A DNA stretch of 64,000 bases from Pecten maximus (taxonomy: Eukaryota), in assembly GCF_902652985.1 (NCBI RefSeq), contig NC_047022.1, positions 17,794,001 to 17,858,000 of the forward strand, given 5' to 3'. Positions 31,611 to 40,029 of this stretch are shown in pieces. Every line of letters begins with the position of its first letter. Positions within the stretch are counted from its first letter, which is position 1. The translations under genes and the position numbers were made by a program. Below the pieces are notes generated by a model, which saw nothing but the letters and a program-made list of their open reading frames with translations, was not told where the DNA came from and searched no databases.

Positions 31611-32991
31611 ATAACATACACACAGCCTCCAGTTGCTTGTCGTTTGCTTTTGTCGAAAGTCTAGACCTGTAGTCGTTAAGTGATGATCATTGAATGTTTA
31701 TAACTCTGTAATCAGAGTAGTAGTACCGCTGTCACCATATGAGCGTGACGATTGATAAGCTAAACTATACCTGCCTTGTTGAATGACTCTTGACCGGTCC
31801 CATGTATCCATGTATTGATAACTGAGACTGGTGCAATGAGCCAAGGCTTGATTTGACAGGCCGTCACTTAAGTTTATAAAAGACTTTACTGGTTTTATGG
31901 TTCAATGATAACGTGTTACGAGCCCTTAACGTAAACGATTCCAGTACCTTTATTAATGGGATTTATTTAATAATAAATAAATCTGTTTATCAGAGTACAA
32001 TATACTAGGCCTTTTGGTGTCTTGTTACCGGATTAAGAGTTGTCGCCCTTTTGTCAATTGTGTGCTTTTGAATTATCTCCCCTTAGCACTTGAAAATTCT
32101 AGACTGCCGGAACGCTGTTTGAGCAGTTGATTTATCACCAGATTATTGCATTTTTGCGTCGGTTTGCACCACGCTGCATAGGACAGGTTTGATATGGGTG
32201 TCATGAATTTCTGATATGGTTTCATTTTACGTTCTTGAATTTAAGTTAGTTGCTTAAAGTCAGTATTTTCGGATATATCTTGATCTTGTCAGCGTCTTTC
32301 GTACTCCCGCTCCCCACGTCTTAGCAGGAGCGGGGAAACCTATGTTATCAGTTATGGTCACCTTCATTTGATCCCATGCATTCATGAATTTAAGTAAAAA
32401 GAAATTCGAAAGTCGTAGCAAATTTGGTCTCTGTGAATATCTAACTTAATTCGAACTTTGTTAAGTAGGCAAGTTGTGAAATTCATTTTAGAATGGGGGG
32501 GGGGGGGGGGGGGGGGGTCATCTCGGTAACGATTTGACTGCTCGTAGTATTGCTTAACGCTACATTTTTGAATGGGCTTTATTTATCAAGCATTAGAGGT
32601 TCTGGTGCACTATTAAGTATTTTTTATTAGTTAATGCACAAATATTTATAATCTTTCATTCAGCAGTGTGCTCGTAAGGGCTGTCTGGATTGGAACGATG
32701 AACACCTCAATTTCACGGTGCCCGGGCCCGGGGGTCGTCTCGGCAACATTTCCATACAATACAGTCGTATAATAGGCGATTTGTTTTTAAATCTTCTAAG
32801 ATGTTTTGGTAGTTTTTATAATATTGAAGTTTATTTACATTCGATATAAGTAATTTGTGATATAATCTGTACTAATTATAAGTAATTCAGCAGATTGACC
32901 AAGTTATTGTTGCTGGTAACACTGGTTGAATTGCAATATTTATTTTTATATTTATCGTTAACAGTTTGGCTTTTATATGTTTCTATCAAGT

Positions 32992-34032
32992 ATGCCTAGA
33001 GGAAAAGGAGTACAGCCAAAGAGGCTAAGTCAGAGGGAAAAACGGAAGCGTCTCCCCTATGACCCCAGTGACCCTCACGATGCGGACCAAACGCAGCATG
33101 CAGTTAACACCCCTGTCCAGTCTGACCAGATACTGATGTCGAGAACTCAGTTGGAGCAAAATGATTGCTGACAAAATTGAGGAGAGAATGGACCGGAGCA
33201 CTCAGATTGCTACATTAATAACAACATCTAGTGAGGCTCCAAATAATGCAGGTAATGTCCCTCCTACCAACACACAGGAATTGGACACTTACCAGGTTGC
33301 CAGTGTGCATAACACATTGGGGGCAAATATTCCACTTAATATAAGGCAAAAAAAAAAAAAAATGGGGAAAATGTGGATTTAAAAACCATGCTGGTCACCC
33401 CAGGGAACATTAATGAACCATCTAAGAAAATTGGTTTGGTGGATGGGGAGATCAAAATTATTAATAGGGAGTTGGGTAAGACAATTACTGACATTCAGGC
33501 ATGGACAGATGCATTCTTAATTTTTATGGCAATATACTTTTTCGCTCATCAGGATGAAGCCCCAGCCATGCTCAAATATATAAGTACAGTAAGGTTAGGG
33601 GCAGGTAGAGGCAGTGGAAATAGTTGGCTGGAATATGACCAACAATTCCGTTTAAGAAAAGCAAGAGATCTTGCTGTTTCATGGGTTGTGGTTGATCAGG
33701 AACTCTGGCTCATCTACATGCACAAGGGTGCTAGTGTTAGTAATTCGCATAAACCTATGGGTGTTAGACAGGATCAAAATTTGAAATGTTATGATTACAA
33801 TTATCAGAGGGTATGTAACAGGGCAAATTGTTTTTACATTCATCGTTGTTTGAAGTGTTCAGGAAGGCATCCAAGTGTCAGTTGTTTTACAAAGGGCACA
33901 CAGAGTAATTCTGGTAATTTCCATTTTAGACCTGGTTCTGGGAGAGGAAACAATTTCGGTGCCCAATCATCCTCTTCTCAGCATCCTGCCCAATCATCGC
34001 GATTTAACAACAATCGCCCAGTCACCAATTAA
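32992..34032 (+). pseudogene. Ngaro gag-like ORF (two slippage frameshifts)
   Basis: WTDAFLIFMAIY, WLEYDQQFRLRKA and the Cys/His cluster CYDYNYQRVCNRANCFYIHRCLKCSGRHPSVSC. Confidence 0.85.
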
Positions 34033-35608
34033 TTTAAGTTTACTTGAGGAATTACTGAGGGGTACCCTGATCGTGCTGTGGCGAGCGAACTGCTTCAAGG
34101 GTTTAAATATGGTTTTCAGCTTCAGTATTCTGGTCCTAGGTTAGCTTCTGACTGTAATAATCTTGCCTCAATTTTTGATCATGAATATGAGGCTGCTACT
34201 AAGGTGCTAAAGGAGGTCAACCTTGGCCGAATTGCTGGTCCATTCCATCACAGGCCCCTGGATAATTTACGGACTTCCCCAATTGGTCTTGTTCCTAAAA
34301 AAGATGGGTCCTGGAGATTAATTCAGCATTTATCACACCCTCAGGGGTCTAGTGTCAATGACTTCATTGACTCTGATTTATGTAAAGTTGAATATGCTTC
34401 TTTTGACACTGCTGTGGAGATGATCAGTAAGCTTGGTCAGGGTGCTTTGTTAGCAAAGATATAAGATCAGCTTTCAGGCTGCTACCAGTCCACCAACAAG
34501 ATTTTTAATTACTTGGTTTTAAATTGATGGGGATTTTTTTTGTTGATCGTTGTCTTCCTATGGGATGTTCAATTTCATGTTCATTGTTTGAGAAATTTGC
34601 AACTTTTTTAGAATGGGCTGTTATAAAGAACTCCAGTATCCCTAGTATAGTTTATTATTTGGATGATTTTTTGTGTGCTGGGGAGCTTGAAAGTACTAAT
34701 TGTAGAACCCGTATGCATGCGCTACAACAGATTTGTATAGAACTGGGGGTGCCATTGGCAAATGAAAAAACTGAAGGGCCTGTGCAAATTCTTGTATTTT
34801 TGGGCTTGGAAATCAATACACAGGATATGTCAGTTAGAATTCCCCAAGGCAAACTTCTAGAACTCAAAGAAAAACTGTTGGCTTTGTACAATTGTAGGAA
34901 AGCAACAGTAAAAGAGATTCAAGCATTGTCCGGCCTTTTAAACTTTTGCTCTAGCGCCATACCCTGTGCCAAAGCTTTCAATATACGTTTTTATGATTCA
35001 ATTTCTGGCATGGTAAACCCACGTCATCATGTGCGTTTAACCTGTGATTTGAAGGAGGATATTCAAGTTTGGCTAGTTTTCCTAGAATTTTTCAATGGAG
35101 TAACATATATACCAGATTTGGAGTGGACATCAGATACACAACTTGAACTTTTTACTGATAGTGCTGGGGGTAGTCAGCTTGGAGGGGGTGCTTACTTCCA
35201 GGGACATTGGGTGTTCTTTCCCTGGCCTCCCGCTTGGATTGGTACTGTGGTGCTTCCTGACATCACTTTTCTTGAGTTGGTCCCTGTAGTTCTGGCTTTT
35301 CACATTTGGGGTAGCTTCATGTCTAAGCGCAAGATAATCCTCCACATAGACAACAGTGCATTAGTGGCTTGCATCAATAAAAAGTCCTCGAAGTCTAAGG
35401 GAGTAATGCATTTGCTTCGACCCTTTGTACTGGATATCATGATCAACAACATTCAGTGTAAGGCAACTCATTTGGCTGGAACTAAAAACCTTATTGCTGA
35501 TGCAATTTCTCGTCTTCAGTTGACAAGATTCTGACACCTGGCACCTTCAGCAGACCAGGAACCAGCCAAAATTCCAAGATCATTCCAGGCATTAATCTCA
35601 ACTCTGAA
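34010..35608 (+). pseudogene. Ngaro reverse transcriptase / RNase H
   Basis: SPIGLVPKKDGSWRLIQHLS, LPMGCSISC, YYLDDFL, FTDSAG, ITFLELVP, HIDNSA and NLIADAISR. Confidence 0.92.
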
Positions 35609-36502
35609 GCTGTCCGATTGTTGAATGCATCTCTTTCTTCAAATACCAAAAAAGCATATGGACAGGCCTTGCTAGCTTTTGAGAGTTTTAGAAATAGTAG
35701 ATTCAGTTATAATGTTTGGCCACCTAGCTGTCAGCAGTTATAGACTTCATTGCCTTCAAATCAGCTGGTGGTTTTTCTCCAAGCACAGTGCAAACTTCAA
35801 TAGCTGCTATATCTTTTAAATGCAACAGCTTAATGGTACAGACAATTTTGTGGTTAAGCAAATGTTGCGGGGTATGTCACGCCTTAATAAGAAATCAGAC
35901 TCTCGTTTACCAATAACACCAGATATCCTTGTTAAAATTCTGAATTCCCTCCCTGCTGTATGTTTTTCTGTGTATGAGACCAAACTTTTTTCGGCCATTT
36001 TTTCCTTGGCCTATTTTGGGTTTTTCCGCATAGGGGAATTAGTAAAAACAAGTTTCACACCAGGCACTGGGATGCATGTTCTAAAAAGAGATAACGTTAG
36101 AATGTTGTACAATGATTCGTTGCTGCAGTTAGCATTACCTCATTCTAAGACTGATCAGGAAGGTAAAGGGGTTGTGCTGGAGTTTCCATCAGGTGCATCC
36201 CCCTGTCCTGTCAAACGAGTCAAGGATTACTTGGCAGTACGTCCTGCGCTTGGGGGTCTTTTTTTTGTCATTTTGGGGGGAAACCAGTCACTAGATACCA
36301 GTTTAATTCACTTTTGCATAAGAGTCTAACATTTTCAGGTTTTAAAACTGGTGATTTCAAATCTCATAGTTTTCGAATCGGAGCTGCAACAAATGCAAGT
36401 AGTGTAGGCATGTCAGAAACTGAAATCAAACAATATGGGAGATGGGGATCTCGTGCATACAAGTCTTATGAACGAATCCTAACAGTTAAGCTTGGGGATT
36501 AA
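35600..36502 (+). pseudogene. Ngaro tyrosine recombinase
   Basis: RLPIT, FGFFRIGEL, HSKTDQEGKG, CPV, SHSFRIGAAT and GRWGSRAYKSY (R-K-H-R-W-Y catalytic set). Confidence 0.92.
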
Positions 36503-36560
36503 CGGCCAATCGGTATTTTGAATTAAGTAGGCATTCGTCATTTGTCATGGCATCGTTGTA

Positions 36561-37219
36561 ATGGCAAATATTAAGTCTTTTTCAGATGACGAAAATCAAG
36601 TTTGGGTGCTGGGCTCCTCGATTATTAAGAGAGCTTTCATACAGGCCAGGTCCTCGGCAGAAGGGGTGCATCTAGGGCTGCAACGCTACAGAATTAGATT
36701 GTGGTGGCAGGGTAAGAGAATTAGATTGTGGTGGCAGGGTAAGAGTGGCATGCGTTAGAGTCAAGTTCCAAGCATGGTGAAGATAATGCTAAAGTATGAA
36801 TCCCCCCCCCCCCCCCCCCCAAAGCTTTGGTTATACACTGTGGTGGGAATGATGTGGGACAGTTTTCTTTGGGACATTTGAGGCATACAATTTTAGATAC
36901 ATTGGACACGCTTAGGGCTCAGCTACCAGAAACATTCATTATTTGGTCACAGATTCTACCAAGGAAGTGGAGATATGAAAGACCATTGGGTAATTTGAAT
37001 AGACACAGAGTAAGAATTAACAGTAAAGTTGCTACTGACAATTTATCGAAAGGTGGTGGGTATATTAAATACCCTGAGATTGTTTGTGGCAGCCCTGCAT
37101 TGTTTTTAGGGGATCAAGTGCATTTTTCAGACCTTGGGAATTTCTTTTTCCTACGTTATCTACAGCAAGGTCTTTTTTCCTATTTTAAGCTTGACCAGAG
37201 AGTGTTTCCCCAGCAATAA
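36561..37219 (+). pseudogene. SGNH/GDSL-type hydrolase ORF of the Ngaro element
   Basis: Block I WVLGSS, block II GKSGMR, block III IHCGGND and block V DQVH. Disrupted by a 27-bp tandem duplication, a stop and a poly-C run. Confidence 0.85.
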
Positions 37220-38548
37220 TACCAATTGAGTGGCTACATTGATGGACATTTCATTCATGGTGATTGTGGCATTGGCTGCTTCAGCTACCTTTATATCTCT
37301 ATTTAGAGACAGGGGTAATCTGGAGTAGTTCACGGCCGGGATTTTCCTGCTAATTTGATGAGTTTTGATTTATGTGCAGTGATTTTCCTGCAATTTTGAC
37401 AATTTGTCGTTAATTTTTGTGGGAGTGAGCAAGAATTTCTTGCTACGTAACTTGACCCTTTGAAGTGATATAAGTTTAAGATTGCTGGTATTGATTTGAT
37501 AGTTGAAGTCAATTTGAAATTTGTTTTGAATGTTATTACTGGTGGTGGTGTCAAGTACCGGGATAGAATTTAAGGGTCTGTAGTATGCTTTTTGCTATTT
37601 CTATCTGCGGTCCTTGCCATGTGGCGGGTTAGAGGTGGCCACCAGGATTAATAAGTATTTAGTTAATATTTCCCCTTAAATTACAGCTATTCAAAATGAC
37701 GGCTGACCACAGAGTCATTTCTGTATATAGCTTATTGACAGATCTTGTCACATATTTATCTATCTATTTGAAGTGGCCCCAAGCCCAATTTGGGTGATAA
37801 CCTCTTGGTGACGACGCCATGTCCACAATCGCCAAACATAACATAGCTGAAGGTATGATATATCACTTTAAGTTGATGGACTCTTGTATAGGCAAATGAA
37901 TATTGGGTTTGAGTATATGTAAATTTTACTCATGATTGCTTAATAAACAAAGTGAACATGATTATTGTTTGTTTGTTATCTCTGATAAATGAAAACCATG
38001 ATTCATTACATGCAATTATATACATTTAGTATGTGCCAAGTATTTACATAAAAGTTTGATATCCTGTGGTTCCGTTATCCAAAATATGGCCAAAATAATG
38101 GAGTCCAGTGTCCCAGATTTCCACAATGGGCCTGCCCGGGATAGCTAAACCCTACAGCTCCTTAGAGTGCGTCCTCTCCGTTGGGGCCTGCGCGCAGCTG
38201 GCGGTTAATCAACTACTCCCCCATATTGCCTGGGAGGGATCGTGTTTCACCCTGGGCGGTGATAACTTTTTGTCACTCCCGCTGATGAAACCTAATACAT
38301 TGGTCAACCGTAAGACTGTGATCACACGTACTTTTCTAATTGTTAATAATATAAAACTAAACTTTATAACTGCATTGTCGTTCAAGAAACGCGGGGAAAA
38401 CTTGATGTTGTAAACAATTTCAAAGTAGAATTCCTCTAAGGGTATAAGCACCGGAAATTTAGAATGGCATAACAATGACATAGTATGAAAATCCCTGTCT
38501 CCTTATCGGGTAATATTTCAAGATAACACAATATAAGACACCGTAAAC

Positions 38549-39385
38549 TCACTACACTGCACTGCACTACACTACACTACACTACACAATCACCAACTAA
38601 ATTATATACAGTCAACACATCAATCCTTTATGAATGCAATACACATCAAATACACAATAACAATGCACAGTAAACACATAAATCCCTCATCAATAACACA
38701 ATAACACTGCACAGTAGTCACATAAATCCCTCATGAATATAACACAATAGCACTGCACAGTATTCACCTAAATCCCTCGTCAATAACACAATAGCACGGC
38801 ACAGTAAGCACATACATCCTTCATGAATATAAAACAATAGCTCTGCACAGTAATCACATAAAGCCCTCATGAATATGACACAATAGCACTGCACAGTAAG
38901 CACATAAATCCCTCATGAATATAACACAAAACACTGCACAGTAAGCACATAAATCCCTCGTCAATAACACAATAACACTGCAAAGTAGTCACATAACTAC
39001 ACATAAGCACATAAATCCCTCATGAATATGACACAATAGCACTGCACAGAAATCAAACAAATCCCTTGTGAATGTAACACAATAACCCTGCACCGTAAGC
39101 ACATAAATCCTTCATGAATATAGCACAATAGCACTACACAGTAAGCACATGAATCCCTCATCAATAACACAATAGCACTGCACAGTAAGCACATAAATCC
39201 CTCATGAATATAACACAATAGCTCTGCACAGTAATCACATAAATCCCTCGTCAATGAAACAATAGCACTGCACAGTAATCTCATCAGTCCCTCATGAATA
39301 TAACACAATAGCTCTGCACAGTTATCACATAAATCCCTCGTCAATGAAACAATAACACTGCACAGTAAGCACATAAATCACTCAT
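38549..39385 (-). repeat. (CTACA)n microsatellite plus inverted copy of the 44-46-bp minisatellite
   Basis: The unit ACACAATAGCACTGCACAGTAAGCACATAAATCCCTCATGAATAT is the reverse complement of the 28045-28829 unit. Confidence 0.95.
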
Positions 39386-40029
39386 TAATGACAAACATAC
39401 TAACATAATTCAACCTTTCGCTTACAAAACCAATTCTGACAAATTTATACTAAAGGTTTTTTGAACTATTATGTATTTATTGTGTCGCACTAAGTTAAAT
39501 TCAATGGTGGGGAACCATGTAGTTTTTTTTTCTTGTATTTAAACTTAACTTGCCAGAGGTATTATAGAAGATTATTTAACAAATTCAAACAATGACCAGG
39601 ATTTATTGATAACAATTCTACAAAATAGTCTTCTTCGAAATGTCATCTACCCACAGGTAAAATACAGTAACACAGGGACTAGTGTAAATAGTTTATATGT
39701 TCTTTTTTTTAGGCCAACACCACCATATGCAAATATTTACATTAGAAAGCATGTTCTAAATTGCTTGACAAAGACTGCAGATAATTTCTTACTTTAAAAA
39801 CAAGAATTTTGAAACTTTACATAAAATTTGATTTTAATTTTGTATCGTAGAACTATACTCTCAATTTCAAAGTATTTTGATATTGGGATAACACCATTTT
39901 CACATCTTTTACAATTGTAACTGTGACAAATATTGTAGAACTATTCTGCCAATTTCAAGCCATTTAGATATAAAGAAAACACATTTTTCCATAATTTTCA
40001 CTTCTTTGGAACTGTTGCCATTGTGCCAT

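Follow-up and report, generated by a model that had tools for sequence, protein, structure and literature searches.

Alternative splicing from a shared gag leader as a probable expression plan for Ngaro retrotransposons of Pecten maximus

How the tyrosine-recombinase (YR) retrotransposons translate their overlapping and mostly ATG-less open reading frames (ORFs) is an open question, for which the printed proposal, in the case of the YR itself, is ribosomal frameshifting. The question is raised in concrete form by a 64,000-nt stretch of Pecten maximus DNA (assembly GCF_902652985.1, contig NC_047022.1, positions 17,794,001–17,858,000 of the forward strand), here called the window, in whose numbering all coordinates are given. 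It contains a broken copy of a Ngaro YR retrotransposon, extending from about 31954 to 37988 on the plus strand, in which a repeat (A1), gag, pol (+1 relative to gag), YR (−1 relative to pol), an SGNH hydrolase ORF and a second repeat (B1) follow each other in that order. The initial annotation proposed that the SGNH ORF is expressed through one splice from gag, as an env-type add-on. The donor of that splice is valid, but the proposal was too narrow, as the same donor appears to serve several acceptors in what would be a general expression plan rather than an env-like addition. We put at roughly 0.8 the probability that the family of the window copy expresses pol, YR and SGNH by alternative splicing of the gag donor at 33251 to acceptors ending at 33929, 35519 and 36585.

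The sites themselves are readily described. The shared coding exon (32992–33251) consists of the gag ATG, a basic patch (KRKR), a short predicted helix and a linker, and ends in a phase-1 donor (33249–33257), where CAG at 33251 is followed by GTAATG; the GT is kept in the window copy and in loci L003, L011, L012 and L013. The SGNH acceptor (36572–36585) comprises TAAG, a pyrimidine tract and a CAG ending at 36585, is likewise phase 1 in its local frame, and is retained in the window, L001, L002 and L003 but lost in the decayed L006 and L008. These sites, their phases and the 3.3-kb intron (measured as 3334 nt) agree with the initial annotation, as does the N-terminal Gag part of about 87 residues: in the window, the reading frame of the gag ATG (32992) is shifted by one against that on the donor side, and in the unbroken copies L002 and L011 the split codon is preceded by 86 codons. 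What that annotation missed are two further phase-1 acceptors that fit the same donor, one before pol (33915–33929), which in the gag frame reads TTT AGA, against TTT CGN in many other families, and one before YR (35497–35519), inside the motif ADAISRLQ at the end of RNase H. It had also credited the locus with all four SGNH blocks, and these are present (GSS at 36612, GKSG at 36738, GGND at 36842 and DQVH at 37112), but not in one open frame: the SGNH exon (36586–37219), open in L001 and L002, is disrupted in the window by a 27-nt tandem duplication (36690–36743), by the stop codon TAG at 36756 and by a poly-C run at which the frame shifts. Because of these lesions, and because gag, pol and YR are broken too, the window copy cannot make the proposed fusion; therefore the proposed protein can be judged only from other copies.

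Such copies were sought among 142 stretches of the same genome, picked by DNA, SGNH and YR searches and screened for two-block alignments. The screen gave 92 two-block events (repeats and insertions included) over 386 placements, four of which have GT..AG ends. In the window family, L002 lacks exactly the 678 nt corresponding to window 33252–33929, so that the gag donor at 33251 is joined to acceptor 1 and an open frame of 662 codons runs from the Gag N-terminus through reverse transcriptase and RNase H (RT/RH). This copy has a complete A1...B1-A2-B2 repeat arrangement at its own site with its own flanks, and is 99.7% like the unspliced L011/L001; it is not an allele or assembly artefact of the latter, as the flanks differ. 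In another family, L069 differs from L072 (96–98% alike) by an exact 3507-nt GT..AG loss in phase 1, which begins at a gag donor that again reads GTAATG and stops at the acceptor of SGNH; its element ends are not intact. In yet another comparison outside the window family, L130 has lost exactly 2235 nt with GT..AG ends relative to L128 (99.3–99.7% alike), the missing part reaching from a donor in gag as far as the CAG where RNase H ends and leaving an open 525-codon frame of leader plus YR, intact repeats and no pol. The homologous sites in the window are acceptor 3 and acceptor 2, respectively. The fourth event, a 434-nt loss in the 5′ leader of L079 relative to L026, was not counted (weak donor, 4-nt slide), and may be chance or a leader intron. 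The three counted losses carry weight because all are in frame on sites conserved independently across families; a random deletion would join the donor to one of the three acceptors with a probability of about 1.5e-6. We infer that reverse transcription of spliced RNA gave rise to these copies. They support an undescribed expression plan in a known family of elements, with intron-less DNA records of all three joints. For the window family itself, pattern searches found no intron-less gag–SGNH copy among six donor-exon and five SGNH-exon matches.

Two observations stand beside these copies. L131 (G000:C3963) has an open 526-codon leader-plus-YR frame without pol and is probably a further intron-less copy; as its parent lies outside the set compared, it was left uncounted. 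L011 and L001 are the two halves of a young unspliced copy, lying at contig ends with the same 35-nt satellite on both flanks.

Conservation of the sites was examined across families whose proteins are approximately 30–60% identical to those of the window family. The best GT in the N-terminal part of gag is in phase 1 in 19 of 20 families, compared with 105 of 205 control windows (51%; p 3e-5). Likewise, the best acceptor within 60 nt of GSS is in phase 1 in 18 of 23 families (L069 excluded) as against 173 of 479 control windows (36%; p 5e-5), and phase 1 is kept while the distance from acceptor to GSS ranges from 11 to 44 nt. Conservation of site and phase, which the initial annotation had named as a check, thus holds in most families. 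A branch-point-like CTRAY before the SGNH acceptor is modestly enriched (10/23 families versus 12% in controls). At the YR acceptor, 34 of 36 clusters (84 loci) have in phase 1 the AG that comes first after the Asp of RNase H, and codon choice is strongly biased at this point in the 36 clusters: Arg is CGN in 36/36 (background 0.40), Ser is TCN in 36/36 (background 0.76) and Gln is CAG in 33/36 (background 0.51). Hence the observation exceeds chance both at the level of families, through phase conservation, and through three exact intron losses. As a separate feature of the SGNH acceptor, AAG lies 6–13 nt upstream of it in 17 of 23 families (10% in controls), at 36572–36576 in the window.

Protein models from other species offer a further view, with the caveat that these are public models whose underlying DNA and RNA support we have not seen. 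RefSeq isoforms are usually backed by RNA. Among 93 scorable homologues, 18 have a long N-terminal extension, and in six of those 18 (from oysters and a clam) it is a basic leader placed directly on SGNH; in a set of 150 representatives, 15 of the 87 scorable were flagged as having this arrangement, two of them doubtfully. Such leader-plus-SGNH models thus come from oysters, a clam and a mussel-type element. An SGNH protein, P0335, and a Mytilus YR protein, XP_071146703.1, have a common 58-residue leader with 55 identities, and their domains each begin at a predicted acceptor shown by the genomic frame of P0154. The oyster proteins P0249 and XP_052720177.1 share a leader of 48 residues, after which one continues into Gag-like sequence (judged by eye; missed by BLAST at 1e-3) and the other into YR. 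In four such pairs, all eight first residues after the common leader have codons starting with G, which fits phase-1 splicing because a phase-1 split codon needs them. Among the models there is also a cluster, that of P0071, in which a 384-residue leader-plus-YR protein lies on several long contigs; another organism may here harbour intron-less elements in multiple copies.

Several points weigh against this interpretation and should be considered together. RNA data were limited to four of the 24 listed runs, all of them contigs and shallow, and X10 alone is on record as RNA, the nature of the other three having been guessed. The joint of 33251 to 36586, which the initial annotation offered for checking, is absent in four of four runs, as is that to 35520, although contigs drop rare forms; X10, the recorded RNA run, shows no joint at all, and contigs of X1 cross both the YR and the SGNH acceptors unspliced. 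One X1 contig does show 33251 joined to 33930 (gag to pol). This is not independent of the genomic evidence, as X1 agrees with L002 at 39 of 40 positions (with L001 at 38), and it may have been read from the intron-less L002 itself. An X2 contig ending at 33251 is a weak hint for which L002 would also account. In addition, GT..AG ends are weak evidence by themselves, with four of 92 seen where our own estimate would expect approximately one or two, and the joints in the intron-less copies can slide by 1–4 nt. The best SGNH acceptor falls in another phase in five of the 23 families (four in phase 0, one in phase 2), and the p-values are optimistic, given the relatedness of the families and the splice-site weights used. 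The bivalve evidence consists of protein models, and that on leader function and +1 slippage of motifs. With L069, the donor joint of L002, the phase of the acceptor and the bivalve models on the other side, we nonetheless consider that the SGNH ORF would very likely be expressed as a spliced fusion to the Gag N-terminus, and that the specific joint of 33251 to 36586 is probably real.

It is possible to read the SGNH ORF differently, as translated from its own ATG (36561–36563, 25 nt upstream of acceptor 3 and in frame) by reinitiation or from an internal transcript, with the acceptor incidental. That ATG, initiation at which had been named as a potential refutation, is found in the window and in four of five aligned loci, in a fair context (purine at −3, G at +4); the unspliced contigs over the acceptor would suit it, and in a sister subgroup SGNH lies 5′ of gag and starts with an ATG of its own. 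However, retention of the ATG says little when close copies are so alike, and an in-frame Met is present in 7 of 23 families and lacking in 16, and several families have a stop 11–16 codons 5′ of GSS. Moreover, L069 records the splice from gag, and leader-plus-SGNH models exist in other bivalves, so we regard initiation at this ATG as improbable. Translation of the YR by −1 ribosomal frameshifting from pol, with the acceptor-like sequence a by-product of the RNase H motif, is the proposal of Poulter and Butler (2015), known here through its quotation in PMC13003380. It agrees with the fact that nearly all copies have YR in the −1 frame, overlapping the end of RNase H, and an open −1 frame alone would disfavour TCT AGA. 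Against it, no common slippery heptamer was found by eye; in most copies the opening of the YR frame is confined to some −34 to +20 nt around the motif, in some families right at the CAG of the RNase H end, and in some a stop in the YR frame lies immediately 5′ of that CAG; the preference for CAG over CAA is silent for pol; and L130 records a splice from gag to the very residue at which the Mytilus model enters YR. We consider this reading very improbable.

One may also suppose that the splices are cryptic or host-imposed dead ends, or that the losses are DNA deletions at microhomologies of 1–4 nt, supplying no needed protein. The sliding joints allow this, many other internal deletions occur among the 142 loci, and the splice products are known from nucleic acid and gene models, not from protein. 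Still, all three losses fall on independently conserved sites and keep the frame, at odds that random deletion would seldom meet; silent positions at the RNase H end are constrained; and for YR and SGNH an alternative start is mostly lacking, which together leave this explanation with very little probability. A different kind of alternative accepts the splicing and disputes the purpose of the leader, which according to the initial annotation is helical and could co-assemble the esterase with Gag. A helix-like stretch just 5′ of the donor can be seen by eye in the window family and several others, and the esterase of the ZfL2-1 element is tethered by a coiled coil (PMC3905857). Between families, in contrast, the leaders are not conserved in sequence, and several are rich in Pro, Ser and Thr with no evident helix; what recurs is a basic patch with a low-complexity linker, the net charge being at least +5 in 19 of 20 families and a pattern like a nuclear localization signal appearing in 16 of 20, figures that have no control set. 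Prediction of a Gag-leader homodimer gave a score of 0.06, which is no answer and was used neither way. Co-polymerisation through a shared helix as the main role thus appears possible though rather doubtful. Because the basic patch is near-constant while the sequence is not conserved, the likeliest roles of the leader are to provide a start codon and nuclear import or RNA binding.

The route to pol appears to be more varied. A strong phase-1 pol acceptor is present in approximately 14 of 32 families, which rules out a universal one. It is informative to compare this with TTTCG, which in the gag/pol overlap 19 of 32 families carry in the gag frame and 2 of 32 in the other frames (L002 excluded), with a background of 62 in 31,394 codons. 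Six families, mostly decayed single copies, have neither feature. Influenza PA-X is made by a +1 frameshift of the UUU_CGN type. The same motif is a known +1 slip site of plant amalgaviruses (PMC5052127), and in Ngaro elements, as in these systems, a +1 overlap holds TTT CGN in its upstream frame. They differ in that the window family lacks UUU_CGN and at that spot (33925–33930), together with two other families, has TTT AGA, at which it would splice; in Ngaro the slip is predicted from its motif. On these sequence patterns, many sister families are likely to reach pol by a +1 ribosomal slip at UUU_CGN where the window family has its TTT AG acceptor.

These elements fit the description of Ngaro in the available text of PMC9210276, whose layout is A1...B1-A2-B2. 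In L002 the split direct repeats are complete, the A repeats matching at 98.4% over 189 nt and the B repeats at 100% over 366 nt. The copy in the window retains A1 at its 5′ end (31954–32139; a 97% match to the internal A2 of L001, L002 and L003) and B1 (37623–37988), and is missing A2 and B2, the B1-A2-B2 series being carried by the same three loci. The remainder of gag (33252–34032) contains a conserved core and Cys/His fingers (around 33787–33885), is frameshifted at a poly-A run, and matches no Pfam family at E≤0.1. Pol (33930–35534), which has no ATG of its own in the window family and suffers frameshifts and an early stop in the window, matches RVT_1 (E 2e-6), and one piece of the fragmented YR (35520–36502) matches Phage_integrase (E 0.004), both under the curated cut-offs; the intact YR of L002 matches many PF00589 proteins. 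There is no Met within the first 110 codons of YR in the window family. Pol stops about 40 codons past the ADAISR motif, no Pfam match to a methyltransferase follows RNase H, YR overlaps the end of RNase H in the −1 frame, and the SGNH ORF lies 3′ of YR.

Other arrangements were encountered in and around these elements. Just 3′ of the window copy lies a minisatellite of alternating 44- and 46-nt units (38563–39435). In L090 a 625-nt unit that covers the end of RNase H and the beginning of YR is tandemly amplified to four copies, and in L121 a 1232-nt unit with partial SGNH to five. L015 and L017–L021 (contigs C14 and C3596) are clustered and hold only a part like the Gag leader (approximately 70–75% DNA identity) with no other element ORFs, possibly as a non-autonomous family. 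In a subgroup comprising L128, L129, L138 and L139 (also L130 and L131), SGNH precedes gag and has its own ATG; in L128, L129 and L138 gag seemingly has no ATG, a phase-1 acceptor lies ahead of it, and a conserved donor-like AAG/GTAA is found just past the SGNH stop.

The hydrolase domain itself is well defined. Over 24 sequences, blocks I, II, III and V have invariant G, N, D and H residues and a near-invariant GS. The L002 domain is modelled with a pLDDT of 95 as a single soluble domain that matches SGNH folds at a TM of about 0.7, so that L002, unlike the broken window copy, combines the blocks with a flavodoxin-like fold. Its best sequence match among solved structures is the ZfL2-1 esterase (4c1b, E 2e-11), and the closest named relatives of the element proteins are from molluscs, mostly bivalves. 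By analogy, the Ngaro esterase is likely to bind lipids or target membranes as the ZfL2-1 esterase does. ZfL2-1 ORF1p (PDB 4c1b; PMC3905857, in part) shares the fold and the combination of a basic, helical N-terminus with an esterase; there it is the single ORF1 of a LINE, whereas in Ngaro the architecture would be spliced together from the start of gag. Features of an envelope protein, namely a signal peptide and membrane anchor, were not recognised in what is a single soluble domain behind a basic leader, no dedicated predictor having been run.

Comparison with other systems helps to place this plan. The Xenopus elements DIRS-53_XT and DIRS-54_XT (which resemble Ngaro and carry SGNH; PMC9210276) have the same order of gag, RT/RH, YR and SGNH, the same A1...B1-A2-B2 layout, overlapping frames and no methyltransferase. 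In the available portion of that paper the function of SGNH is unproven and splicing or introns are not mentioned, whereas here a single donor links the ORFs, as intron-less copies testify. The Poulter and Butler model, as it is quoted, likewise has YR begin in the −1 frame across the end of RNase H, and reaches it by frameshift; the evidence here points to a spliced message of Gag leader and YR. The spliced pol mRNA of foamy viruses (PMC3705302, in part) similarly yields a downstream gene from a spliced subgenomic RNA, but foamy Pol is without any Gag sequence, while the Ngaro products would each keep a Gag leader of about 50–200 residues. Spliced ORF3/env messages of LTR elements (PMC5408684, in part) are also subgenomic, and bdelloid LTR elements carry GDSL/SGNH ORF3s as well; an envelope role is not supported for Ngaro. 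The plan is not described in the parts searched for splicing or frameshift terms of PMC9210276, PMC6681497, PMC4157794, PMC3783388, PMC7192593, PMC9341512 and PMC5633606, and literature searches gave no description of Ngaro leader splicing or of a UUU_CG slip in these elements.

One can imagine the plan as follows. Unspliced RNA would provide Gag and the genome or template, and the choice among 3′ splice sites from one phase-1 gag donor would give leader-Pol (in the window family), leader-YR and leader-SGNH, each beginning with the same 86-residue Gag leader. The leader would supply the start codon and, likely, a basic patch for nuclear import or RNA binding, which would bring each enzyme to the RNA particle of the element. 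Spliced RNAs would keep the terminal repeats and could be copied in trans, which would explain L002 and L130; trans action of RT has been reported for DIRS-1 (PMC7192593, in part). Whether animal Ngaro elements at large run a retrovirus-like programme of this kind, in which the leader is spliced to YR and esterase, pol is reached mostly by a UUU_CG +1 slip and elsewhere by a TTT AG acceptor, recoding and splicing have been swapped in evolution, and spliced RNAs are recopied in trans, seems to us an evenly balanced proposition.

For the YR retrotransposons, the plan gives exact, testable joints for YR, for pol and for an esterase of no proven function. It would redefine the real N-termini of these three proteins, and would explain odd bivalve gene models as isoforms of the element. 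Furthermore, the motifs suggest a +1 slip at UUU_CG that may be the first for a retrotransposon, as literature searches turned up none, at the very spot where some families would instead use a splice acceptor.

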